A DNA stretch of 64,000 nucleotides from Oscillospiraceae bacterium (lineage in GTDB: Bacteria; Bacillota; Clostridia; Oscillospirales; Ruminococcaceae). The notes beneath the pieces are model-generated. The model searched no databases and was not told the DNA's origin. It saw nothing but the letters and a program-made list of their open reading frames with translations. Of this stretch, positions 2,833 to 47,085 are shown piece by piece. Position 1 is the first letter of the stretch. Each line of letters opens with the position of its first letter. The DNA is taken from the NCBI GenBank assembly GCA_017414435.1, contig JAFQMN010000004.1:10375-74374 (forward strand), read 5' to 3'. A program made the position numbers and the translations under genes.

Positions 2833-3972
2833 ATGGCAGAATTTAGAGCTATGGTTATAACGAATAGTGGGCAGGAACTAATAGCTAAAACATTAGCAGG
2901 AGAACTTGAATTGCAATTTACTAAGATTTGCCTTACAGATACAGCATATACCGATGCACAATTGCTGGAATTATCTACATTGAATAATATTTGCCAATCT
3001 GCATCTATCTCTAGAGTTTCTAAAACATCTGAATCTGCAATACAAGTTGAAGGTGTAGTTTTAAATGTAAACCTTACTACAGGTTATTATATACAAACAT
3101 TAGGGTTATTTGCAAAAGATTTAAATAACAATGAAGTGTTATATGCAGCTTGTGGTGCAACCATACCAGGTTGGATGCCACCATATAACGGCTCGACCAT
3201 TTCAGGCTGCAATTTAAAATTAATAACTATGGTTTCTAACACATCAAATATAAGCCTTACTGTTGATCCTGCTGCAATAGCTACCATTGAAGATTTAAAT
3301 TCCCTTGAACTATCCTCCATTCAAACTGTAGATGGCTTACATGGTATTAGATATTATAACAATGCTCTTGAAGTTAAGAACAATGCTGGCAATTGGATTA
3401 ATCCTGCATCCTTAGCTACAGCTGCAGATTTAAATTCCCTTGAATTATCCTCCATTCAAACTGTAGATGGCTTACATGGTATTAGATATTATAACAATGC
3501 TCTTGAAGTTAAGAACAACACTGGCAATTGGATTAATCCTGCATCCTTAGCTACAGCTGCAGATTTAAATTCCCTTGAACTATCCTCCATTCAAACTGTA
3601 GATGGCTTACATGGTATTAGATATTATAACAATGCTCTTGAAGTTAAGAACAACACTGGCAATTGGATTAATCCTGCATCTCTAGCTATGAATGATGAAG
3701 TAAATGCCTTAAAACCAAAAAGTAAAACTCTAACACTAAGTGTTTCTAATTGGGTTTTAAACTCCAATACTCAATTATACGAATATACCGTCACAGACTC
3801 AACAGTTTCACCATCACATATTATCAATTGCTATATGGATTTAGACAATCAAGTCAAACTTACTGATGGTTATACTGAAACATATAATGGGTCATATAAA
3901 ATTATTACATCAAAGCAACCGATTGAAAATATTACAATAACTGTAACAAAGCAATTATATGCGAGTTGGTAA
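2833..3972 (+). CDS. Phage tail fibre protein containing three tandem 45-aa repeats
   Basis: 379-aa ORF after the baseplate genes, with GGAG 8 nt upstream of the ATG. It carries an internal near-identical triplication: DLNSLELSSIQTVDGLHGIRYYNNALEVKNN(A/T)GNWINPASLATAA. Confidence 0.6.
   Translation: MAEFRAMVITNSGQELIAKTLAGELELQFTKICLTDTAYTDAQLLELSTLNNICQSASISRVSKTSESAIQVEGVVLNVNLTTGYYIQTLGLFAKDLNNNEVLYAACGATIPGWMPPYNGSTISGCNLKLITMVSNTSNISLTVDPAAIATIEDLNSLELSSIQTVDGLHGIRYYNNALEVKNNAGNWINPASLATAADLNSLELSSIQTVDGLHGIRYYNNALEVKNNTGNWINPASLATAADLNSLELSSIQTVDGLHGIRYYNNALEVKNNTGNWINPASLAMNDEVNALKPKSKTLTLSVSNWVLNSNTQLYEYTVTDSTVSPSHIINCYMDLDNQVKLTDGYTETYNGSYKIITSKQPIENITITVTKQLYASW
3292..3690 (+). repeat. 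In-frame tandem repeat, 3 copies x 135 bp, inside the tail fibre gene
   Basis: GATTTAAATTCCCTTGAA... recurs at 3292, 3427 and 3562 (period 135 nt). Only a few substitutions separate copies, e.g. AATGCTGGC versus AACACTGGC. Confidence 0.95.
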
Positions 3973-5600: not shown

Positions 5601-5697
5601 AAAATTGCAAAATTATTTAAGAATGCAAATTGAAATGGGTAGATTAACTTTAGAAGACATCCAAATTAAATATCCTGACTTTGAGGTGGTATTGTGA
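5593..5697 (+). CDS. XkdX-like small phage protein (34 aa; absent from the ORF track)
   Basis: ATG at 5593 is preceded by GGGAGGA with a 7-nt spacer. Translation is MNEKLQNYLRMQIEMGRLTLEDIQIKYPDFEVVL. It overlaps the stop of the upstream gene and the GTG start of the holin. Size and position match the xkdX slot before the lysis genes. Confidence 0.5.
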   Translation: MNEKLQNYLRMQIEMGRLTLEDIQIKYPDFEVVL

Positions 5698-5915
5698 AAG
5701 ATATAAAGATAAATTGGAAACTTAAATTAACGAGTCGTAAATTTTGGGCTGCTATACTCGGTTTTATCTCTCCTTTACTTCTTAGTTTTAATGTATCAGA
5801 AAGTGTAGTTGCTCAGGTTTCTAGCATTGTTATGTCTGGTGCAACTTTAATTGCATATATTATCGGTGAAGGATTAGTTGATTCCAATAAACAGGGAGAT
5901 GAACGTAATTCATGA
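5694..5915 (+). CDS. Phage holin
   Basis: 73 aa. The N-terminus KINWKLKLTSRKFWAAILGFISPLLL plus a second hydrophobic segment and a charged C-terminus is typical of Firmicutes phage holins. It lies immediately upstream of, and overlaps (ATGA), the endolysin. Confidence 0.7.
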   Translation: MKDIKINWKLKLTSRKFWAAILGFISPLLLSFNVSESVVAQVSSIVMSGATLIAYIIGEGLVDSNKQGDERNS

Positions 5916-6697
5916 TTTTAAAAGAGTGTATGTTAATTAAAAATGCTTGTTATATCCATAACAAAAAAATCACCAATGGTAAGCCAACTGGCATAGTTGT
6001 GCATTCCACTGGTGCTAACAATAAAACTTTAAAAAGATACGTTCAGCCTGTTTCATCTCAACCCTATTACAACGAAGTCATAGTTGATTTAGGTAAGAAT
6101 ATATATAGTAATCATTGGAACAATTATTACGTAGAAAATAACCGCAGCTGTTGCGTTCATGCATTTATAGGTGTTAATGCAACAGGAAAAATAGAAACAT
6201 ACCAAACTCTACCATTTGATATATGCTGCTGGGGTTGTGCATCTGGCAGCAAAGGATCTTATAACTATAATCCTAGTGCTAGAATTCAATTCGAGATATG
6301 TGAAGATAACCTCAATGACCGCATTTACTTTGACGCGGTGTTTAATGAGGCAATTGAATTTTGCGTCTACTTATGCAAACTCTTTGAATTTGGAGCAGAT
6401 AAGATATGTTCGCATCGTGAAGCGTATTTAACCGGGTATGGAAATAACCATGGAGATTGTGACCATTGGTTAAAACGCTTTGGAAAGAATATGGATTGGT
6501 TCCGAAGTCAAGTTAAATCGCAACTAAACGAAGAAAATAATACTCATAATAGAAAATCTATAGAAGAGTTGGCGCAAGAGACAATAGATGGTAAATGGGG
6601 GAATGGAACGGTAAGAAAAAACGCTCTTATCTCTGCTGGTTATAATTACAGCAAAGTGCAAAAGCGTGTTAATGAAATACTCTATAGTAATAAATGA
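5912..6697 (+). CDS. Endolysin: N-acetylmuramoyl-L-alanine amidase with a C-terminal Cpl-7-like cell-wall-binding repeat
   Basis: The N-terminal half resembles amidase_2/PGRP-type enzymes (GIVVHSTGANN..., HREA...). The C-terminus GKWGNGTVRKNALISAGYNYSKVQKRVNEIL matches the Cpl-7 (CW_7) repeat pattern GxWGNGxxRxxxLxxAGYxxxxVQxxVN. Confidence 0.8.
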   Translation: MILKECMLIKNACYIHNKKITNGKPTGIVVHSTGANNKTLKRYVQPVSSQPYYNEVIVDLGKNIYSNHWNNYYVENNRSCCVHAFIGVNATGKIETYQTLPFDICCWGCASGSKGSYNYNPSARIQFEICEDNLNDRIYFDAVFNEAIEFCVYLCKLFEFGADKICSHREAYLTGYGNNHGDCDHWLKRFGKNMDWFRSQVKSQLNEENNTHNRKSIEELAQETIDGKWGNGTVRKNALISAGYNYSKVQKRVNEILYSNK

Positions 6698-7111
6698 ATC
6701 AATGAAGTAATGCTCACATTAAATTTTTTTTACATTGTTGATTACTATAAATATATTCTCCCTATAAATCAATAACTTTCTTTGGTTGTTTTATGTTATT
6801 TAGCCCTATTAAAAGCCAATTAATAGCCGAACAAATCAAAAACCGAACTAGTAACACATTAATAACAAACAGTTGATAAAATGGCTTTATATAGCGATTA
6901 ATCCGAGAATGTACTTTGTTATAGCATATAATTCAAATTTGTCAAACTAGGAATCCTTATATCGTGTAAAGCGACTTTTAGTTAATAACTTTAATTTCTA
7001 TTACAACAATCCCACGTTTTCGATCAATTTTAAATTATTGCCCACGGGAAATGTAAGACATAAAGCTATATGTGTCAAGTTGAGTCATTTTATCTTATAA
7101 TACTCAATTTT

Positions 7112-7144
7112 AAACAATCCCTCAACATTGTTGAGGGATTGTTT
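7112..7144. terminator. Stem-loop (14-15 bp) acting as a likely bidirectional intrinsic terminator
   Basis: AAACAATCCCTCAA-CATTG-TTGAGGGATTGTTT. On the plus strand it is followed by TTTTTG. On the minus strand it begins 6 nt after the TAG of the 37-aa ORF, where the U-tract is weaker. Confidence 0.6.
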
Positions 7145-7150
7145 TTGTCT

Positions 7151-7264
7151 CTAACAGCACTTTTTTTGGCCAGGTTCGATTGCACAGCATGGTGTGCTTA
7201 AAAAGGCTCCGTGTACCTCAGAATCTTCTAAGCTCACAACAAAATCTATTAAATTATTATCCAT
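7151..7264 (-). CDS. 37-aa Cys-rich putative RiPP precursor peptide (not in the ORF track)
   Basis: Hand translation of the minus strand gives ATG(7264) MDNNLIDFVVSLEDSEVHGAFLSTPCCAIEPGQKKCC TAG(7153-7151). A Shine-Dalgarno AGGAGGTG (7280-7273) lies 8 nt upstream of the ATG. The ORF starts 49 nt downstream of the radical SAM/SPASM gene and is followed by a terminator hairpin. Confidence 0.65.
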   Translation of the reverse strand: MDNNLIDFVVSLEDSEVHGAFLSTPCCAIEPGQKKCC

Positions 7265-7313
7265 TACTATTTCACCTCCTTTCTTTACTATTTCTTAGAA
7301 TGTAAATCATATC

Positions 7314-8639
7314 TTAAACAATAACTTTCTTTTTCCTACGGTCGTATTCAAATTTCAAAACATCAAACAGATTGTATTTTAACGTAGGGCAAGTTTTCAA
7401 AGTAACACAAGTGCCCATACACAATGGTAAAATATTGCAGTCAGCACATTCTTTATCTTTAAGTGGGGTATATAAAATATTTTTTAAATAATACGAATTA
7501 TCAATTGATTGATCTTTTTCCTTTTCTTTTTTTATCAGTTCAAAGATATTCCCAATTTCTTTCCCGGGTTTTCCAGCGTCTGTCCAACAGCCAAAAAGAT
7601 TTCCATCTGGCCCTATCATATAAGCATGCTCAGATGTTGCTACACAATGTTGAATAATTTGAGGTAAAGGATAAATGGTTGCTTTAAAACCGAGTTTTAA
7701 AATGTCTACAATATACTCTAGTTCTTTTTTAGAAAATTCTTTGACATCTAAAAAAAGATCAAATTGTTTTGAACATTCACTTGCATAGTTTCTTATTGGA
7801 GCGATCGATACTAAACAATCATTTAAATTTTCTTTTGCAAAAATTTCTAACAGTTCTTTCACTCTTGTTTCATTTTCTTTAGTTGCATGAACACGCATGG
7901 CTACTTTTATACCGCCTGCTTTGAGCATTTTTAAATTGTTAAGAAGGGTATCAAACGTCCCTTTTGATGAATTTTTTAGCTTCCTGGACTTATTATGTAA
8001 ATCAGGTGGCCCATCAAAGCATATTTGTACACCCTCAATTCTGCTTTCTTTCATTTTATTTACTGTACTTTCATCTATAAGGTAGCCATTCGTTATCATA
8101 TATGCTAAAGATTTTGTTTTATATTTATCACAAATATCGTTGATTTTTTTAGATAAACTCCAAATGCTATTTTTTACTAATAAAGGTTCTCCCCCATACC
8201 ATGTAATTCGAATTTTTTTGCCTTTTTTTGCATAATTTTCGCATAGCTCAGCTATAGCATCTTCTACCTCCGTTGTCATCATCAAATTAGTCTTTCTGTT
8301 ATCATAGTTTCCCTCATAACAATAAGGGCAAGCAAAATTACAAGAGTAGGTGGGCATTATAGTTAATTTTAAGTATTCACTATCATATTTACTTTTCTGA
8401 TACATAAATTCTATATAATCCAATTCATTAAAATCGTCGTTAATTATATAACCACTTTTTTCCATGGCTTCTAGTCTTTTTTTATTATCTTCTTCTAATT
8501 CAGACTCTTTTATTGTATCTATTTTATTGTATAAATTCATAAATTTACCATCTGCAACGGCAAACACACTAGTTAAGCTGTTAAAGATTAATTTGTGACC
8601 ATCATGTTCAAAAAATATATTGTACCTAGAATGTTTCAA
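7314..8639 (-). CDS. Radical SAM / SPASM-domain peptide maturase
   Basis: CNFACPYC (CX3CX2C) at about residue 100, GGEPLL, and a complete C-terminal SPASM signature: CVATSEHAYMIGPDGNLFGC (CX13GX4C) followed by CADCNILPLCMGTC (CX2CX5CX3C). The roughly 95-aa N-terminal extension before the cluster motif resembles a peptide-recognition (RRE-like) domain. TTG start with AAGGAGTG 7 nt upstream. Confidence 0.85.
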   Translation of the reverse strand: MKHSRYNIFFEHDGHKLIFNSLTSVFAVADGKFMNLYNKIDTIKESELEEDNKKRLEAMEKSGYIINDDFNELDYIEFMYQKSKYDSEYLKLTIMPTYSCNFACPYCYEGNYDNRKTNLMMTTEVEDAIAELCENYAKKGKKIRITWYGGEPLLVKNSIWSLSKKINDICDKYKTKSLAYMITNGYLIDESTVNKMKESRIEGVQICFDGPPDLHNKSRKLKNSSKGTFDTLLNNLKMLKAGGIKVAMRVHATKENETRVKELLEIFAKENLNDCLVSIAPIRNYASECSKQFDLFLDVKEFSKKELEYIVDILKLGFKATIYPLPQIIQHCVATSEHAYMIGPDGNLFGCWTDAGKPGKEIGNIFELIKKEKEKDQSIDNSYYLKNILYTPLKDKECADCNILPLCMGTCVTLKTCPTLKYNLFDVLKFEYDRRKKKVIV

Positions 8640-8705
8640 TTATATTCACTCCTTTTTTAATTTTTATTTATAATTACAAAGCAAAATTTGCATAAAACAA
8701 TATCT

Positions 8706-8957
8706 TCATTCAAGCTGGTTATTTAAAATTAAATTGATAAAATTTTTAATAACTAAATTATCTTTAATGTTTTGTTCAACTATTTTTGAATTAAACTCTT
8801 TTTCTACATCGTGAACAAGTACAAAAATCTCAAAAGATGAAAAACATAGATCGTCAACAATATTACTATCTAAAGATATTTTTTCTGTTATATCAGGTTT
8901 TATATTTAAAATTATATTCTTCAATTTATTAAAAATAGCTATATTATCTTTTTTCAA
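8706..8957 (-). CDS. Acyl/peptidyl carrier protein-like (83 aa)
   Basis: Size and helix pattern fit an ACP. DDLCFSSFEIFVLVHDVEKEF aligns with the D-S-L/xxVEL phosphopantetheine-site region; the candidate Ser is in FSS. TTG start with a strong SD GGAGGGA 6 nt upstream, and a 4-nt TTGA overlap with the ligase stop. Confidence 0.6.
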   Translation of the reverse strand: MKKDNIAIFNKLKNIILNIKPDITEKISLDSNIVDDLCFSSFEIFVLVHDVEKEFNSKIVEQNIKDNLVIKNFINLILNNQLE

Positions 8958-10375
8958 ATTACATCCCTCCTTTTAATTTTATTTGTATAAGTTTTTTCAA
9001 AAGGTTGATCGGTTAACTCAAATTTATTTACTCGTTTATAAATAGGAAGCGTTGAATTTATTTGTTCAACTATATTACAGATTGCATCATATATTTCTCT
9101 ATGCTTTAAAAAAGCGTTAGAAAATATTTTTGCATATATTTGATTTTTTTGCTTGTATACTATAATTTCATCAATTTCGGGATATTGTAAAAATTTATTT
9201 TCAAGTTCTTCTGGGCATACTTTTTTACCATTATCGAAAATCATTAAATTTTTGATTCTACCAGTAACAAACAAAAATCCATCTTTTATAAAACCAATAT
9301 CACCTGTATGAAACCATCCATCTATTATTACTTTGTCCGTTAACTGTTGGTTGTTATAATAGCCAACCGTAACATTACTTCCTTTGATTAAGATTTCTTG
9401 ATTTTTTTCTGCAATTTTAACCTCATTACATGGTACTATTAAACCTGCTGCATTATCTCTTCCATTTATTAATGGGTTAATAGCAACACCGGGAGAACAT
9501 TCGGTTATACCATAACAACTAGACAAGCCAATACCTAATTTCCTATAACTTTTAATTATAGTTTCTCCTATCTGAGCCCCACCGCACAATATTTTGCTTA
9601 AACAATTTCCTACCGTCTCTTGCAAACCATATTTGGAGATTTTCAGTAGTAAAAATTTAGCAATTTCGGGCACAAGGAGCAAAAAAGTAGGATTTACAAT
9701 TTTTAAATCATCAAAAAATGTTTTTGTATTACTAAAAACAATTTTATTGCCATTAATAATAGAGGCAAGTAATACACAAGTTAAACCGAATAAATGATAA
9801 AATGGTAGAATATTTAAAATTACATCTTTCATTTCATACTTATAAACACTACAACCAGCATATACATTGCAACATAAATTTTTATTAGATAACATAACAC
9901 CTTTTGAAACGTCTGTAGTTCCAGAAGTAAATGCAATTGTACATATCTCATCTTCTGAGGTGTCAGGTAAAATGTTATCCAATTGGTGCGCGGTGTTAAT
10001 TTCTATTTCATCAAAATTTATAACTGATATGTTGTTTATTTTTAAATTTAAAAGAGCTATATCAGTGATTATGGTTTTTATTTCATACTTCGAACATAAT
10101 ATCTTTAATTCTTCTGAACTTAAATTAGGTTCTGCCAGCACAGCTATTCCGCCAGAAACTACAATACCAAAATATGCAACAGCCCATATATAAGAAGTTG
10201 TAGCTAGAATCAAATTGTTATTTTTTTTAATTTGCTTACCAAACTTATTAGCAAAGTAAGCAACATCTAGAAAGAACTGCTTGTAGGTTATTTGTATACC
10301 ATTAGCTTCGAATAAAACATTATTGGAATATTTATAACAATACGTTGATAATAGTTGGCTTAAAGTCTTTATCAA
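8954..10375 (-). CDS. AMP-dependent acyl ligase (FadD / fatty-acyl-AMP ligase-like adenylate-forming enzyme)
   Basis: Adenylation core motifs are present: FTSGTTDVSKGVMLS (A3), YGITECS (A5), GWFHTGDIG (A7), GRIKNLMIFDNGKKVCPEELE (A8), and a C-terminal NKIKRR Lys. TTG start with GAAGGTG upstream. Confidence 0.8.
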   Translation of the reverse strand: MIKTLSQLLSTYCYKYSNNVLFEANGIQITYKQFFLDVAYFANKFGKQIKKNNNLILATTSYIWAVAYFGIVVSGGIAVLAEPNLSSEELKILCSKYEIKTIITDIALLNLKINNISVINFDEIEINTAHQLDNILPDTSEDEICTIAFTSGTTDVSKGVMLSNKNLCCNVYAGCSVYKYEMKDVILNILPFYHLFGLTCVLLASIINGNKIVFSNTKTFFDDLKIVNPTFLLLVPEIAKFLLLKISKYGLQETVGNCLSKILCGGAQIGETIIKSYRKLGIGLSSCYGITECSPGVAINPLINGRDNAAGLIVPCNEVKIAEKNQEILIKGSNVTVGYYNNQQLTDKVIIDGWFHTGDIGFIKDGFLFVTGRIKNLMIFDNGKKVCPEELENKFLQYPEIDEIIVYKQKNQIYAKIFSNAFLKHREIYDAICNIVEQINSTLPIYKRVNKFELTDQPFEKTYTNKIKRRDVI

Positions 10376-10412
10376 GATATCACCTTCATGTGGTAATACA
10401 ATTTTTTTATAG

Positions 10413-10985
10413 TTAATCTAGTGAAATATATTTTTTAAACTTATCAAAAAGATTATAAAATTCATCTTTAAACATAGCAATAAGATATTCATCGTGATAT
10501 TCACCTTGAACAAATGCATGTCTTTTTCTTATTCCTTCAATTTTAAACCCAGCTGAAGTTATATTATCCAAGCTGTTTTTATTAAAATCCAAAACAGACG
10601 ACACTACTTTTTTTACAGGGAAATATTGAAACATATAATCAAGAAAAATCAACCAAGCTTCTGTATTTATAGGTGATTTTCTGTATCCAGGTTTTATATA
10701 AGTGCCAGCAAAAAAATTTCCATTTTCTAGGTCTATAAAAGCATACCCTACATATCCAACTAATTGTTCCCCTTTTTTATCTATAATGAAAAAATAATTA
10801 TCGTATTCATTATTATCGTTTAAATTTTCGATTTTATTTTTAAACTTGGCACATGAGTAAATTTTTTTATGATCACTGTTCCATTTGTTTAATTCATTAA
10901 GATTATTTTCCCATTCATAAAAATCGCTCAAATATTTATCTTCATAGGTAGAAAGATAAATATGCTTACTTTCAAGCACTTTCAT
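10413..10985 (-). CDS. GNAT-family N-acyltransferase (RimJ/RimL-like)
   Basis: Acetyltransferase-fold pattern (...LVGYVGYAFID..., GYRKSPINTEAW, FNKNSLDNITSAGFKIEGIRKRHAFVQGEYHDEYLIAM). I place the start at ATG 10985 (MKVLESK...) because AAGGAGGA sits 5-6 nt upstream; the longer track ORF start (11045) has no SD. Confidence 0.7.
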   Translation of the reverse strand: MKVLESKHIYLSTYEDKYLSDFYEWENNLNELNKWNSDHKKIYSCAKFKNKIENLNDNNEYDNYFFIIDKKGEQLVGYVGYAFIDLENGNFFAGTYIKPGYRKSPINTEAWLIFLDYMFQYFPVKKVVSSVLDFNKNSLDNITSAGFKIEGIRKRHAFVQGEYHDEYLIAMFKDEFYNLFDKFKKYISLD

Positions 10986-11073
10986 CGCCATCCTCCTTAT
11001 TTTAATCATACCAGTTATACCAGATTGTGCTGCATTCCCAAACACATATCACGATATTAAAGTTTTTTATTTT

Positions 11074-11101
11074 AGTATAAACCCCACAATAAAATTCACA
11101 A
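11074..11101 (-). promoter_or_regulatory. Candidate sigma-A promoter of the GNAT-ligase-ACP-rSAM-peptide operon
   Basis: On the minus strand: TTGTGA (11101-11096), a 16-nt spacer, then TATACT (11079-11074), about 90 nt upstream of the GNAT ATG. Sequence match only. Confidence 0.3.
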
Positions 11102-11103
11102 TA

Positions 11104-11134
11104 CCCCCCCCCATTTTTGTCGAATTTTGTCGAT
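11104..11134. repeat. C9/G9 homopolymer followed by two tandem decamers (TTTTGTCGA at a 10-bp period)
   Basis: Nine consecutive C at 11104-11112. TTTTGTCGA occurs at 11115-11123 and again at 11125-11133. Both lie immediately upstream of the candidate -35. Confidence 0.9.
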
Positions 11135-11282
11135 AAATTTATAATATTTCTTTTTTAACAAAAAATTATTCACTAATCGTAAATGTTTATTTTTGCATTA
11201 TAGTACATGTGTTTTTGTATTTTTGGATTGTAATACCTAAATTGCTTTAATACAAAAATTCGGATTTTATGTAAATTAAGTA

Positions 11283-11709
11283 AACATCCCCCGGCATAGC
11301 CGGGGGATGTTACTATTACGTCTAAAAGGCTATTTCTTAACAACATCTCAAGGTGTATTACCATTCCAATGCGTGCGTTTTTTATCTTACTTTCTACACT
11401 TAAATGGTTTTTTTATATTCTTTTATTGGGGTTTGGCTGTGCATAACTATTCTCTGTGCAAAAAACTGCTTTGTTCAAATTTATATCCTAGATTAAACCA
11501 TTCCAATCACATAACTCCCTTAGTATTTTTCCTATCTTTAATCTTTTTCGTTGTAAAACATTTTTCTTCTCCTATGTTTCGTGGTGTATACTCTATATGG
11601 TACTTACAATTCCATTCTGTATGTAATAAACTGTTAACGTTATTAAAATTACCGCTACTATTTTGTCATATAGTTTAAGTCTTTGTTACTACCGGCACTG
11701 CCGGTAGTA
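11283..11709 (-). mobile_element. Decayed IS200/IS605-family element (relic) bounded by two GC-rich subterminal hairpins
   Basis: Perfect hairpins AACATCCCCCGGC-ATA-GCCGGGGGATGTT (11283-11311) and TACTACCGGC-ACT-GCCGGTAGTA (11687-11709) bracket a frameshifted tnpA(Y1)-like remnant. Both hairpins share a CCGGC-N3-GCCGG core. Confidence 0.5.
11310..11640 (-). pseudogene. IS200-type tnpA (Y1/HUH transposase) pseudogene with frameshifts and stops
   Basis: Minus-strand translation from about 11627 gives LHTEWNCKYHIEYTP. After a frameshift it gives KHRRRKMFYNEK, and after another RLKIGKILRELCDWNGL. This tracks the conserved IS200 TnpA N-terminus (AHTxWxCKYHIVFxPKYRRxxxY....LGxILRxLCxWKxV) as I remember it. 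There is no intact start, the later part is barely recognisable, and several stops occur. Confidence 0.55.
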
Positions 11710-11719
11710 TTTTAAATAA

Positions 11720-11757
11720 AAAACCACCTAGGTTGAATTTTAACCCAGGTGGTTTTA
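11720..11757 (-). terminator. Rho-independent terminator of the large surface-protein gene
   Basis: Minus strand reads AAAACCACCTGGG-loop-CCTAGGTGGTTTT followed by a T-run. It starts about 28 nt after the stop at 11786. Confidence 0.7.
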
Positions 11758-11785
11758 ATATTTACAGCCTCATTTCTTCGTAGTT

Positions 11786-14700
11786 CTATTTTGCTACTTT
11801 CGATTTGCCCATTTTCTTTAAGGTAGCAGCTTTTGCTGTAATTTTTAAAATACCATTTGCATCAGTTTTTGCCTTGCCTAATTTTACAACTGCGCCTTTA
11901 GAATCTAAGCCCCAAACTGTAATGCTTTTCTTTTTCATTTCTGTTTCTAAGTAAATTGTTGTAGTGCAGCCCAAAGTGCCAAGATCGCCAGTATCTAAAA
12001 CAATATTCGTCTTTGCATCTTTTTTATACTTTGTTGCATCTTGCTTTTCAACCTGCAATAACAATTTGCCGGTAGCTGTAGCTGTTGATGCCTGAATATC
12101 TGCACTGTTAATTAAAAGTGTAGAATCTTCATCGTTAACAACCAGCCTGACTGTGCCTTTAGTTTTTGCTTTTAAGTCCGCTAAAGTCATTTCAAAACCG
12201 CTGTTATTTAATATCTCATACTTCCCTTTTGTCTTTTCAACAACCAATGGGCTTTCTTCAATCACATATGCATATTTTGTATCGTCAATGCTAAACGTTA
12301 CAACACCATCATCCATTGTGTATACGCCCATATTTTTTACTAACTTTCCAGTTGACCTGTTGATTTTATATACCGAACATGGCAAATCAATCTTTAACTT
12401 TTTAGAGATCAAATCAGCTGCGCCATAAACATCCACTGTAAACGGTAACTTCTTTTGTACTTTACCAAAAGTTATAATCTGAATATCTTCACCGTTACCA
12501 AAAAGTTTTTTGTTTTTATTTATAGCTTTGGTTAAAAGAGCACTTTTTTCTACCATATCGGTATCTAAATTTATCTTTCCGTTTTTCTTTTCCCAAGCTT
12601 GCAACCAAGCATACACTTTTTTTGCTTCAGCAGCAGACATCGTGCCAGTTTCTTTAGAGCCAGCTGCTTTTCTTAAATTTTCTTTGTTAATTTCAAAACC
12701 AGATTCTCCACTTTCTCCTGCACTGTTAGAGCTTGTGGTAAACAAACTTTTAGAACTGTTAGTTTTGCTAGCTGCAGTGGTTGTTGCGGTTGTAGCCCAG
12801 GACACTTCATCCATTGGAATCTTTTCGCCGCTAATAATTTCTATTCCATCAACTATATTCGAGTTGAAAGCTCTTCTAAGAGATTCTGCACTTTCAAAAA
12901 TACCGCCGTTGCCTGTTAAGCTAAAGTCACCAGAGGTAGATCTTATTGTTCTGCCGTTAATTGTAATCGTTGTTGTATCTGTAGGTGCTGCTGTTGTGGT
13001 TGTAGAACCACCCGAAGACGAACCACTTGATGATGAACCGCCTCCACCGCCAGAGCTGCCGCCAGAGCTACCGCCTGAGCTTGATGACGAACTGCTTGAC
13101 GAAGACGATGATGATGTAGTAGTGGTGGTTGTTGTAGTTGTTGTAGCTGTTGGTACATATGCTGCCGGTTCAGCCACGGTAAATGTAAGCGAATTTGTTC
13201 TACCACTAAAGTCTGTTAATTTAAATGTATATGTTCCAGCTACTGTAGTTGTATATTTACAGTGGTTAACATATGGGGCATCTGCAGGATTTTTACTCAA
13301 ATTATTAGTAACACTTAAAGCATCACTGCTTGCCGGGTGTGTAAGCGCAATTGTTTTAACTGCTGCAACCCCTGCATCATTAAAATCAAATGCAAGCGTT
13401 ACACCGCCGCTCACACTACCTGTAACAGAAACTGAAGAGCTACCATTAGCTACTTCCACTGCATCAGCTGTGCCTAATTTATATGTAATGTTTTCAAACT
13501 CCGGTTCAACTGCATCGTAATAAAACGGTGCTATACCAACAATAGCCTCACTGCTATTACGTAATACTAATGTGTAAAAGCCTGCTGGCGTAGTTCCCCA
13601 AGTTATATCAAAGTACTTTGTAGTTTCACCATTTTGTTTATCCACTCTTAATTGTGCCAACACATCAACATCGGTTTCATCTTCTGTGGTTTCTGTTGCA
13701 CTCTTCGGTTTTGCAAAGTTTGCATTTTGGCTATCTTTAACTGTAATTGCACTACCAGCTGCAATCACAGTCCTTCCTGTTAAAGAATTTATTATATAAC
13801 TGTTAGCTGCACTATAATTAGAATCAGAAGCAGAAGCTACATCTTTAAAGTAAACTGGCAAATATTCTGTTACTACAGTACTACCATCTACTTGCGTTCC
13901 AACATACCCTGAACATGGAGCTGTGGTTGATAGCAAATCAGTTAAAAGTGCTGCTAATTTCCCATTTGTTCCCAAAGTTGCAGGGCCAGCATAGTCTAAA
14001 CCTGCCACTGTATAGCTGTTTCCTGTGGAATTTAAAAACACACTTTCACCAGCGGTTGCTCCACGCCATAATTTTGGTCCATTTCCAACCTGATTATATT
14101 TTACCATAAACACGGTTGGGTTGCCCCCAGACTGCGTAGCGTCAACATTTGCCAACAATGTAATTGGAGTTGTTTCTATAAAAATATCAACATCAGATTT
14201 GCTTGCTGCTGTACTTTTTGCTAAAACCGTACTATCTCCAACACCTGCTGTTCCGTTCGTGTAAGCCTGATTGCCTTTCTCTGTTGCATAGTTATCTGCA
14301 GCAAATGTAAAGCCACTTGTATTAAAGTTTGCGTTATCGCCAAGGTTAGCAACTGCACCACCAATTGCAGCATGGCAACCTGTTATTGTAACGCTGCTAC
14401 CATTTAAAACTCCTTTGTTAAGTATAGCACCGCCTTGCTCTGCACTACAACCGCTAATTTCACTACTGCTAATGAGCATTCTGCCTTTGTTGTAGATTGC
14501 ACCACCATACACGGCTTTATTATTTTTCAAATCTGTATCCTGTATAGTACAGCTACCATCAGTATCAACTAAAATTAACGAACTGCAATCTGCTACATTG
14601 CCACCATTTATTATTATTTTATTAGTTTCATTGCCATTAAAAAGTAAAATTGTTCCACTCTCTACAAAGAATAAGCAACCTTTGTAATCCGAGCCTCTAG

Positions 14701-46395: not shown

Positions 46396-47085
46396 TTAAA
46401 CCCCCAAATCATTATAAAATTGCAAAACTTCATACCAGCAAACTTGTTTTATTGCGCTGTTTCTTTTTTTTGCACTGCACACAGAAATTACATATTCCCG
46501 ATTATCAAAGCATTCAAAAAAATATTTTTTTTCTTGCACATATAAACAAAATTTAGTTTTTATGTGGCCAGCAAACGATATTGACTTTATCTCTTTAAAA
46601 ATTCCTGTTCCTAACATTTTAGCAAAACTTTCTTTTAATGTCCAAAATTTGAAAAATAAATCTATCTTTGAATTGGCAGAGCATTGCTTAATAGCAGCGT
46701 ACTCATCCTTCAAAAAAAATCTGCTAGCAATAGATTCTACATTATTTACTACTCTTTTTTTTTCAATATCTATTCCAATATTTTGTGTGCTAATTACACA
46801 AACTAAAAATGAATCACTATGTGAAATATTAAAATTAAGCTTGCTATCCAAAAGATAAGGCTTTCCAAATTTCCCAACAAAAATCTCTTGCAAAGGTATT
46901 CCCTTTTGAGCCAAAATATATTTTAAAAACAAGTCTGCCGCTAATTTAGTATAGCTTGAGCTTAAATTCACTGTGTCAAAATAACGTTGCTTATAGTTGC
47001 TTATATATTTTTTATAACAATCTAGCGCACCCTCTTGTTGAGGTTGTAATTTTAAAAAATAAATATAATCTTCCAGAAAATGCAC
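46396..47085 (-). CDS. Sfp-type 4'-phosphopantetheinyl transferase
   Basis: FGKPYL, FNISHSDS, GIDIEK, and FWTLKESFAKMLGTG are the Sfp-type PPTase motifs. 229 aa. Confidence 0.8.
   Translation of the reverse strand: MHFLEDYIYFLKLQPQQEGALDCYKKYISNYKQRYFDTVNLSSSYTKLAADLFLKYILAQKGIPLQEIFVGKFGKPYLLDSKLNFNISHSDSFLVCVISTQNIGIDIEKKRVVNNVESIASRFFLKDEYAAIKQCSANSKIDLFFKFWTLKESFAKMLGTGIFKEIKSISFAGHIKTKFCLYVQEKKYFFECFDNREYVISVCSAKKRNSAIKQVCWYEVLQFYNDLGV

Follow-up and report, generated by a model that had tools for sequence, protein, structure and literature searches.

The 64,000-nt stretch of Oscillospiraceae bacterium DNA analysed here (GenBank assembly GCA_017414435.1, contig JAFQMN010000004.1, positions 10,375–74,374 of the forward strand; hereafter the window) contains a five-gene operon in which a GNAT-family acyltransferase, an adenylate-forming ligase and a stand-alone carrier protein precede a radical S-adenosylmethionine (radical-SAM) maturase of the SPASM type and a 37-aa Cys-rich precursor peptide. 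We propose that the first three genes form a self-contained acylation cassette serving the peptide operon, in which an acyl group would pass from the ligase to the holo-carrier and then, through the GNAT, to an amine of the cross-linked peptide. From sequence comparison and predicted folds, we put the probability of this reading at about 0.6. The initial annotation of this DNA had already seen a dedicated loading pair with the GNAT as transferase. That part was strengthened by the conserved linkage of the three genes, a fusion of the GNAT to a radical-SAM domain, a phosphopantetheinyl transferase gene in the cluster of a relative and a degenerate pyrophosphate loop in the GNAT; its description of the ligase as resembling fatty acyl-AMP ligases (FAALs) had to be given up.

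In the proposed pathway, the ligase would adenylate a free carboxylic acid that carries no α-amino group, most likely a scavenged fatty acid, and pass the acyl group to the co-translated carrier, where a phosphopantetheine thiol on Ser41 would accept it. Conversion of this carrier to the holo form would fall to the only Sfp-type 4'-phosphopantetheinyl transferase (PPTase) of the genome. With acyl-carrier, not acyl-CoA, as donor, the GNAT would then acylate an amine of the 37-aa peptide, which could be that of a Lys side chain or the α-amine at the N-terminus. The SPASM enzyme would cross-link the Cys-rich C-terminus of the peptide, and the pathway would yield a ribosomal peptide bearing both an acyl group and cross-links. 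We infer four elements of this scheme: loading of the carrier over CoA, carrier dependence of the GNAT, the peptide as acceptor and a fatty acid as the source of the acyl group.

Organization of the operon

The three adjacent genes at 8706–10985, with the GNAT heading the operon, were confirmed at these coordinates and all lie on the minus strand. The operon and the features associated with it are as follows.

11074–11134, minus strand: promoter-like region (sequence reading and promoter scan)
10413–10985, minus strand: GNAT acyltransferase, RimJ/RimL/SpeG-like, 190 aa, ATG at 10985 behind AGGAGG
8954–10375, minus strand: ANL (class I adenylate-forming) ligase, 473 aa, TTG start, proposed acyl-carrier-protein ligase
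8706–8957, minus strand: stand-alone carrier protein, divergent acyl carrier protein (ACP), 83 aa, TTG start
7314–8639, minus strand: radical-SAM/SPASM peptide maturase, Clo7bot-like, 441 aa
7151–7264, minus strand: Cys-rich precursor peptide, 37 aa, MDNNLIDFVVSLEDSEVHGAFLSTPCCAIEPGQKKCC, AGGAGG 8 nt upstream
7112–7144: hairpin with a 15-bp stem closing the operon (terminator scan)
46396–47085, minus strand: Sfp-type PPTase, 229 aa (PF01648, 68.8 bits)

A longer open reading frame (ORF) extends from the GNAT to a GTG at 11045; we do not take it to be the GNAT gene, because AGGAGG stands before the ATG at 10985 and every homologue begins with MKVLES. The TTGA overlap of the ligase stop with the carrier TTG start, read earlier, is real: the two genes share 4 nt (AATTTGAAAA, 8954–8957), with AGGAGG 7 nt upstream. 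In relatives, which are all metagenome contigs and are designated by L numbers, this junction is an overlap of 4 nt in L026, 14 nt in L002 and 8 nt in L006 and L025, or a gap of 7 nt in L021. Stoichiometric co-production of ligase and carrier, argued earlier from the window overlap, would be in keeping with this arrangement. Gaps of 66 nt and 49 nt separate the carrier from the SPASM gene and the SPASM gene from the precursor ORF, respectively, and the latter two are each preceded by a good Shine–Dalgarno sequence.

Condensation, ketosynthase and thioesterase genes had been reported absent nearby, and none was seen in or beside the operon when it was read with its neighbours; the genome-wide search covered ketosynthase only. 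The module does lie outside any fatty-acid, polyketide synthase (PKS) or non-ribosomal peptide synthetase (NRPS) context, as first described, but it is not context-free, since it is the front half of an operon for a peptide made on ribosomes and modified after translation (RiPP) of the radical-SAM/SPASM type.

The three genes are linked across different radical-SAM peptide clusters

We read nine neighbourhoods of the clade of short ligases to which the window enzyme belongs, and two outgroup contexts; these are a sample, not a census. Besides the window itself, the nine comprise the following, each given with the identity of its ligase to that of the window.

L026, 92%: [cut], ligase, carrier, SPASM enzyme, precursor; contig with Rep and ParA genes (plasmid-borne)
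L002, 88%: GNAT, ligase, carrier, three Clo7bot-like maturases, precursor, ABC transporter
L006/L007/L019, 63%: GNAT, ligase, carrier and an unrelated SPASM enzyme
L010/L030, 63%: GNAT, ligase, carrier and a 678-aa radical-SAM enzyme
L021–24, 53%: four radical-SAM enzymes, WDNCN-repeat precursor, radical-SAM::GNAT fusion, ligase, carrier, ABC transporter
L025, 45%: 679-aa radical-SAM enzyme, GNAT, ligase, carrier, ABC transporter, Sfp-type PPTase
L027/L028, 32–34%: HD protein, GNAT, WSNSTASWK-repeat precursor, two radical-SAM enzymes, ligase, PP-binding carrier
L029, 32%: carrier, radical-SAM enzyme, GNAT, U32-like protein, ligase

All nine contexts contain radical-SAM enzymes along with a stand-alone carrier, and the carrier directly follows the ligase in each except L029, whose cluster holds a U32 peptidase-like protein and two GNAT-like proteins. 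The GNAT is present wherever that flank lies on the contig (L026 is cut there), so the three genes stay linked from 92% down to about 32% ligase identity. Recognisable precursors accompany them in six of the nine. The cassette is also better conserved than its radical-SAM partners: GNAT, ligase and carrier are respectively 79, 88 and 87% identical to those of L002, where the radical-SAM identity is 41%, and 69, 63 and 49% identical to those of L006, where it is 26%. Because the precursors are in addition of unrelated types, the cassette behaves as a portable unit taken up by different radical-SAM peptide systems.

The GNAT is moreover fused to a radical-SAM enzyme in one lineage. L021, L022 and L023 encode a 502-aa protein (L021, 7484–8992) with a radical-SAM domain at residues 11–164 joined to a GNAT at residues 324–479; in L024 the two are separate ORFs. 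Such a fusion is a physical link between the GNAT and the modification of peptides. Its ∼330-aa radical-SAM part in turn shares 28–29% identity with the radical-SAM enzyme that comes first in the L027/L028 clusters, which suggests a small radical-SAM subfamily, absent from the window, that travels with the cassette. Another recurrent neighbour is a radical-SAM enzyme of 678–681 aa, found with an acidic protein of about 91–103 aa (L019, 7492–9820; L025, 1206–3522; L030, 6938–9282). The L025 and L030 copies of this enzyme are 47% identical, and the L025 copy lies just after a SAM synthetase gene.

The ligase is a non-FAAL adenylating enzyme predicted to load the carrier

The ligase matched Pfam AMP-binding with 175.5 bits, and its core motifs place it in the acyl/aryl-CoA-synthetase-like class of the ANL superfamily: A3 TSGTTDVSKG (150–159), A4 PFYHLFG (with His194), A5 YGITECSP (288–295), A7 TGD (357–359), A8 GRIKN (372–376) and A10 K466. 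Across 27 relatives, S151, G152, T153, K158, G159, Y288, G289, E292, G358 and D359 are invariant, and T357, G372, R373 and K466 are kept in at least 90%. The initial annotation had called the A3 motif, SGTTDVSKG, slightly degenerate. The motif is present, but its departure from consensus is a trait of the clade, not a defect, as the affected Gly position is D, N or S throughout the short ligases, with K158 and G159 invariant.

FAALs are told apart from CoA ligases by about 20 additional residues in the N-terminal domain, an insertion that Arora reportedly placed, in 2009, between A5 and A6. Alignment revealed no such insertion in the window enzyme. Its A5–A7 segment is about 10 residues shorter than that of luciferase, which leaves no space for one, and there are no extra residues between A5 and A8 relative to luciferase, oxalyl-CoA synthetase or MenE. 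The best sequence matches in the Protein Data Bank (PDB) were oxalyl-CoA synthetase, 4-coumarate-CoA ligase (4CL), MenE and luciferase; the Escherichia coli FAAL 3pbk aligned over residues 327–402 only, and the AasS structure 8hsy was a weak match. Comparison of the AlphaFold2 (AF2) model (mean confidence, pLDDT, 88) by Foldseek put CoA ligases first. The best FAAL match, 7r7e (567 aa), ranked 20th, with 555 alignment columns for the 473-aa query. We therefore rejected a FAAL identity for this enzyme of just 473 aa, which has no insertion and for which CoA ligases are nearest in sequence and fold. An amino-acid-activating enzyme of the DltA/NRPS type was likewise rejected, as A4 carries His instead of Asp and DltA folds ranked 25th and 49th. 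With His194 in place of the Asp that binds an α-amino group, the substrate is expected to be a plain carboxylic acid; that it is a fatty acid is suggested only by the family names of relatives.

The insertion had been proposed as the test of whether the ligase loads a carrier protein or CoA, and for this purpose it is the wrong discriminator. In FAALs, a specific helix and a blocked canonical CoA pocket go with an alternative pocket lined by proline, and in other ANL enzymes the canonical pocket takes the phosphopantetheine arm of either CoA or a holo-carrier (PMC8460268). Because non-FAAL enzymes accept both, the missing insertion does not settle the acceptor, and we infer carrier loading from the gene neighbourhood instead. 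Identity among relatives of the ligase drops from at least 45%, where all are about 455–475 aa long, to 30–37%, where most are about 500–560 aa and carry source names such as long-chain acyl-CoA synthetase or AMP-binding protein. Short ligases also occur inside this lower range (P0016, P0018, P0058 and P0119). Ten ligases below 480 aa form one clade with support of 100/100 and have a deletion of about 34 aa in common. Each of the two longer outgroup ligases is directly followed by a PP-binding stand-alone carrier; one of them comes after a gene for a PlsC-like acyltransferase, whereas the other precedes genes for a PPTase, a thioesterase and a PKS. Since carriers accompany the clade and both outgroup ligases, the family as a whole looks to consist of carrier-loading ANL enzymes.

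The carrier retains a predicted phosphopantetheine site

The predicted attachment site, Ser41, is the second Ser of FSS in DDLCFSSFEIF (codon 8835–8837). The alignment of this FSS serine with the phosphopantetheine Ser of ACPs, for which confirmation had been sought, was found: Ser41 falls on the DSL Ser of three solved ACPs (E = 3.8e-5). It is invariant in the eight carriers aligned, six of them from cassettes and the others the ordinary ACP of the host and E. coli AcpP (Ser36), and the motif (D/N)L(G/C/F)(F/L)SSF(E/D)(I/M)F is retained across carriers just 25–50% identical. Pfam PF00550 gave no match to the window carrier, and NCBIfam ACP models scored at most 30.3 bits against cut-offs of 66–106. 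The L027 carrier passes PF00550 (31.7 bits against 20.8), as one of three relatives (L027, L028 and L030) whose carriers match Pfam PP-binding. A profile of the six cassette carriers, run against 1.84 billion representatives, retrieved about four clusters of the family and afterwards ordinary ACPs only.

The Sfp-type enzyme at 46396–47085 was the sole PPTase match in the genome and is a candidate activator of the carrier. In L025, the gene run includes its own Sfp-type PPTase (AASDHPPT_N and ACPS), which links the carrier to phosphopantetheine chemistry.

The GNAT has a degenerate pyrophosphate loop

The GNAT matched the Pfam families Acetyltransf_3/4 above cut-off (PF13302, 40.9 bits against 25.4; PF13420, 39.5 bits). 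Its AF2 model (pLDDT 81) superposed on SpeG, RimJ and RimL in Foldseek with TM scores of 0.73–0.77, and the lasso-peptide Lys acetyltransferase IatT (9iy3) ranked eighth with a TM score of 0.75. RimJ and RimL act on N-terminal α-amines, and IatT and SpeG on side-chain or polyamine amines.

The loop that would bind the CoA pyrophosphate reads R102-K-S-P-I-N107 and departs from the canonical Q/R-x-x-G-x-G/A; in PDB sequence alignments, RKSPIN faces QGKGIM and QGYGYA. Across seven GNAT homologues R102 is invariant and the Gly positions are not retained, position 4 being P, S, A, G or Y and position 6 N, H or A. Substituted loops have been termed characteristic of SbzI and FeeM, two GNATs that depend on a carrier, and SbzI retained 2–5% of its activity when it was given a canonical loop (PMC11685415). 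SbzI, FeeM and GdvG were not among the top 50 fold matches of the window GNAT; these enzymes share little sequence with one another. The degenerate loop fits a carrier-dependent N-acyltransferase and is suggestive only.

The maturase and the precursor peptides

The best NCBIfam match of the window maturase was TIGR04334, with 364.6 bits against a cut-off of 600, and the runners-up were all RiPP maturases; the enzyme is by sequence a relative, not a member, of this Clo7bot family. It is 57.6% identical to the SPASM enzyme of L026. The 37-aa peptide encoded behind it is the likely acyl acceptor. L026 has a precursor-like small ORF with the tail ...KTSPCCAIELGRTSCC, also given as ...SPCCAIELGRTSCC, and L002 has one that reads ...GVTPVCAPGPGDK, with the tail ...TPVCAPGPGDK.

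Across the cassettes, the precursor types are wholly different: Cys-rich peptides with TPCCAIE, WDNCN repeats and WSNSTASWK repeats. The precursor-like ORFs with repeats are L021 3928–4161, with WDNCN(W/Q), and L027 2295–2588 and L028 2083–2397, with WSNSTASWK(D/N)G; we take their W-x-N to resemble the three-residue cyclophane (triceptide) motif. No convincing small ORF was found as precursor in the L006/L019 lineage, and the L029-type cluster has no obvious precursor.

The host appears to depend on exogenous fatty acids

The host genome is 0.94 Mb in size and 98% complete. A search of the whole genome found no ketosynthase, and the same search was positive in 14 of 14 reference genomes used as control. 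Two FakB/DegV proteins, PlsX, one ordinary ACP and one Sfp-type PPTase are encoded. With FakB and PlsX present and ketosynthase absent, the host appears to be auxotrophic for fatty acids and to convert acids from outside into acyl-phosphates, and any fatty acid used by the cassette is probably scavenged. The cassette ligase is the only ANL (AMP-binding) enzyme in the genome. There is therefore no FadD-type route to acyl-CoA, and an acyltransferase with a thioester donor would need an activation pair of its own. The gene for the ordinary ACP (C6:98479–98679) adjoins a plasmid-type Mob/Pre relaxase-like gene, not lipid genes.

Weighing the alternatives

Several observations weigh against the acylation pathway proposed here. 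The ligase resembles CoA ligases in sequence and fold, the window carrier falls below the Pfam and NCBIfam thresholds, and the degenerate loop of the GNAT goes no further than suggesting carrier dependence. Nor are the Lys sites of the precursors conserved: Lys33/34 of the window peptide (the KK before the last CC) is replaced by TS in L026, and the WDNCN precursor has Lys in its N-terminal part only. Finally, the operon encodes neither a protease nor an exporter, which leaves leader removal, or exposure of the N-terminal amine, unexplained.

The cassette might instead make a separate small N-acyl amine, from an amino acid, a polyamine or a lipid head group, and be merely co-regulated or co-transferred with the peptide genes. 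The polyamine acetyltransferase SpeG is among the nearest folds of the GNAT, N-acyl synthases of the FeeM type use acyl-ACP (PMC11685415), and both the variable Lys sites and the distant L029-type cluster without an obvious precursor are as expected for such a role. We nevertheless consider it unlikely. Radical-SAM enzymes stand in every clade neighbourhood, with recognisable precursors in two-thirds of them (6/9); the GNAT has been joined to a radical-SAM domain; and the tight five-gene operon of the window otherwise holds only a RiPP maturase and a peptide.

Somewhat less likely still is that the GNAT is an ordinary acetyl-CoA-dependent enzyme, acting in peptide N-acetylation or in self-protection as MccE does, with ligase and carrier serving some other step such as an acyl feed to the radical-SAM enzyme. 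The closest relatives of the GNAT in sequence and fold, RimJ, RimL, SpeG and IatT, are acetyl-CoA enzymes, R102 of the loop is invariant, and N-acetylating GNATs are common in RiPP clusters (bioRxiv 10.1101/2023.10.25.564083). However, the pyrophosphate-loop Gly is not kept in the homologues and is Pro in the window, and the GNAT always lies beside ligase and carrier, often overlapping the ligase start (by 8 nt in L025). The window operon, moreover, holds no other transferase able to unload the carrier.

Least probable of the three is a plain acyl-CoA synthetase accompanied by an ACP-like partner free of acyl groups, such as a scaffold or a protein that binds the peptide, in the manner of TIGR04069 of CcpM-type clusters. 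Such a partner would account for a CoA-ligase-like enzyme without FAAL features and a carrier that fails Pfam PP-binding and weakly matches TIGR04069 (14.9 bits against a cut-off of 70, E = 0.028); ACP-like proteins of unknown role do occur in other radical-SAM peptide clusters (PMC10731318, PMC4573289). The window operon contains no CcpM or TIGR04066 gene. Against a non-carrying partner stand the invariance of Ser41 among strongly diverged carriers, the PPTase inside the L025 cluster, the carriers of more distant cassettes that do pass Pfam PP-binding, the conserved translational coupling of ligase and carrier, and the pairing of the outgroup ligases with true PP-binding carriers, in one case alongside a PKS. 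Conserved linkage and the fusion also speak against an unrelated or self-resistance acetyltransferase, which the initial annotation had entertained and which we consider unlikely.

Mobility and surroundings of the cassette

None of 60 related genomes, among them two of the same genus, has the GNAT, and of 185,579 species genomes scanned by pattern only one does. The cluster is accessory, because related genomes lack it, and vertical inheritance was rejected on these two results. Carriage as phage cargo found no support in databases of viral contigs, phages or plasmids: no GNAT relative was found in 2.9 million viral contigs, and sequenced phages and plasmids gave no match to the ligase with more than about 30% identity. 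Prophage lysis modules nevertheless adjoin two unrelated cassette loci, with a holin and an amidase in the window (5694–6697) and a holin, a GH25 lysin and Tn916-type Int/Xis in L029 (8781–13276).

In the lineage whose ligase is 63% identical to that of the window, the promoter and the 5' end of the GNAT gene of a 4862-bp unit of GNAT, ligase, carrier and radical-SAM genes occur again behind that unit (L007, 1–4989; L006, 927–5843; L019, 1997–7079). L007 assembles as a circle with an exact end overlap of 127 bp. In L019 the second GNAT start is truncated, and a serine recombinase and HicAB adjoin the unit. This repeat would fit either a tandem duplication or an excising element.

The cassette islet of the window has a G+C content of 25–29% in surroundings of 32–40%. 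Its neighbours, beyond the prophage genes, are an IS200-like relic (about 11212–11700) and a gene for a 1136-aa surface protein, with core genes for UvrB, GatD/MurT, QueH and PolC farther out. We found no convincing flanking direct repeats (att sites) around 6700–11800. Rfam gave no riboswitch or leader RNA and returned only weak matches to an IS200-type small RNA (sRNA), STnc490, below the gathering score at 11212–11344; GC-rich hairpins lie alongside (11283–11311 and 11687–11709), and matches and hairpins together fit a decayed IS200 element.

The promoter-like region contains two TCGACAAA(A) direct repeats 11 bp apart (11114–11133) and a run of nine G (11104–11112), followed by TTGTGA-N16-TATACT at 11101–11074 in the promoter scan. 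Repeats and G-run, with the −35 box behind them, also occur upstream of the GNAT in L006 (about 990–1020) and L010 (about 3779–3828), the run being nine G long in the window, four in L006 and eight in L010. The region is probably an activator site, of which the G-run could be a slippage-prone spacer. There is no regulator gene nearby in the window.

Comparison with known systems

To our knowledge, ribosomal lipopeptides are few, namely the selidamides, goadvionins, lipolanthines, lipoavitides and engineered lipolasso peptides. The sources of all known ones are actinobacteria, cyanobacteria or proteobacteria, with acyl donors supplied by primary metabolism or by a whole PKS or fatty acid synthase (FAS). 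A search of the full-text literature found reviews and the known lipo-RiPP papers only, and no published radical-SAM RiPP cluster with ligase, carrier and GNAT. Thus we did not find described a minimal ligase–carrier–GNAT cassette, with no chain-building enzyme, acting on radical-SAM/SPASM peptides of anaerobic Firmicutes. Were the proposed pathway correct, three genes that activate a free acid would be the simplest route to ribosomal lipopeptides, and the lipid part could be selected by feeding. Being found beside very different scaffolds, the cassette would be a candidate general tool for peptide lipidation. The radical-SAM peptides of gut anaerobes, most of whose products and roles have yet to be worked out, would gain an acylated class, and the ligase clade would represent carrier-loading ANL enzymes without FAAL features, relatives of which are currently annotated 'long-chain acyl-CoA synthetase'. 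A wider extension, which we hold only tentatively and at less than even odds, is that this is a horizontally moving lipidation cassette and that Clostridia of gut and rumen make a sizeable group of acylated radical-SAM peptides with it, as yet undescribed. Auxotrophic hosts such as that of the window would then build lipopeptides from scavenged host or dietary acids, the cassette acting on scaffolds as unrelated as Cys-rich thioether-type, WDN-repeat and WSNSTASWK-repeat peptides.

The mycobactin locus mbt-2 offers a precedent for the order of steps. There FadD33 (MbtM) loads a fatty acid on the stand-alone ACP MbtL, and the GNAT-family enzyme MbtK transfers it to a Lys ε-amine; however, this mycobacterial system uses a true FAAL as ligase, and its acceptor is the core of a siderophore made non-ribosomally. 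FAALs and acyl-ACP synthetases of the AasS type share the chemistry predicted here, adenylation followed by thioester formation on a holo-carrier. The window ligase differs from them in that it has no FAAL insertion, is about 100 aa shorter and is a member of a distinct Clostridial family in which a carrier gene habitually comes next.

On the peptide side, the Clo7bot (TIGR04333/TIGR04334) and CcpM-type (TIGR04065–04069) systems of Clostridia and Bacilli pair a SPASM maturase with short Cys-rich peptides, as does the window, and CcpM clusters also hold an ACP-related protein, but neither system has a ligase or a GNAT. Acylation of a RiPP Lys or N-terminus by a GNAT, as proposed here, is known from the selidamides (KspN/PhaN), the lipoavitides (LpvE) and IatT. 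These systems have no dedicated ligase or carrier and draw their donors from primary metabolism or acyl-CoAs. Their scaffolds are respectively proteusin/Nif11, AviMeCys and lasso peptides, in contrast to the radical-SAM/SPASM Cys-rich peptides of Clostridia; the selidamides have an NHLP/Nif11 precursor, whereas that of the window is the 37-aa Cys-rich peptide.

Two further systems have a carrier-dependent GNAT. The goadvionin GNAT GdvG joins an ACP-bound acyl chain to a ribosomal peptide, as we propose for the window (cited in PMC8784127 and bioRxiv 10.1101/2023.10.25.564083). There the chain is built by PKS/FAS genes of the cluster, the peptide is of the avionin type and the producers are actinobacteria; in the window, by contrast, the host has no ketosynthase and a single ligase would activate a ready-made acid. 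The altemicidin enzymes SbzL, SbzG and SbzI of Streptomyces follow the three-part logic proposed here: an adenylating enzyme loads a stand-alone carrier, from which a GNAT that depends on the carrier and has a substituted loop transfers the acyl group to an amine (PMC11685415). Their acceptor is a small molecule, an azaindane dinucleotide, the group transferred is 2-sulfamoylacetyl and there is no peptide or radical-SAM context.

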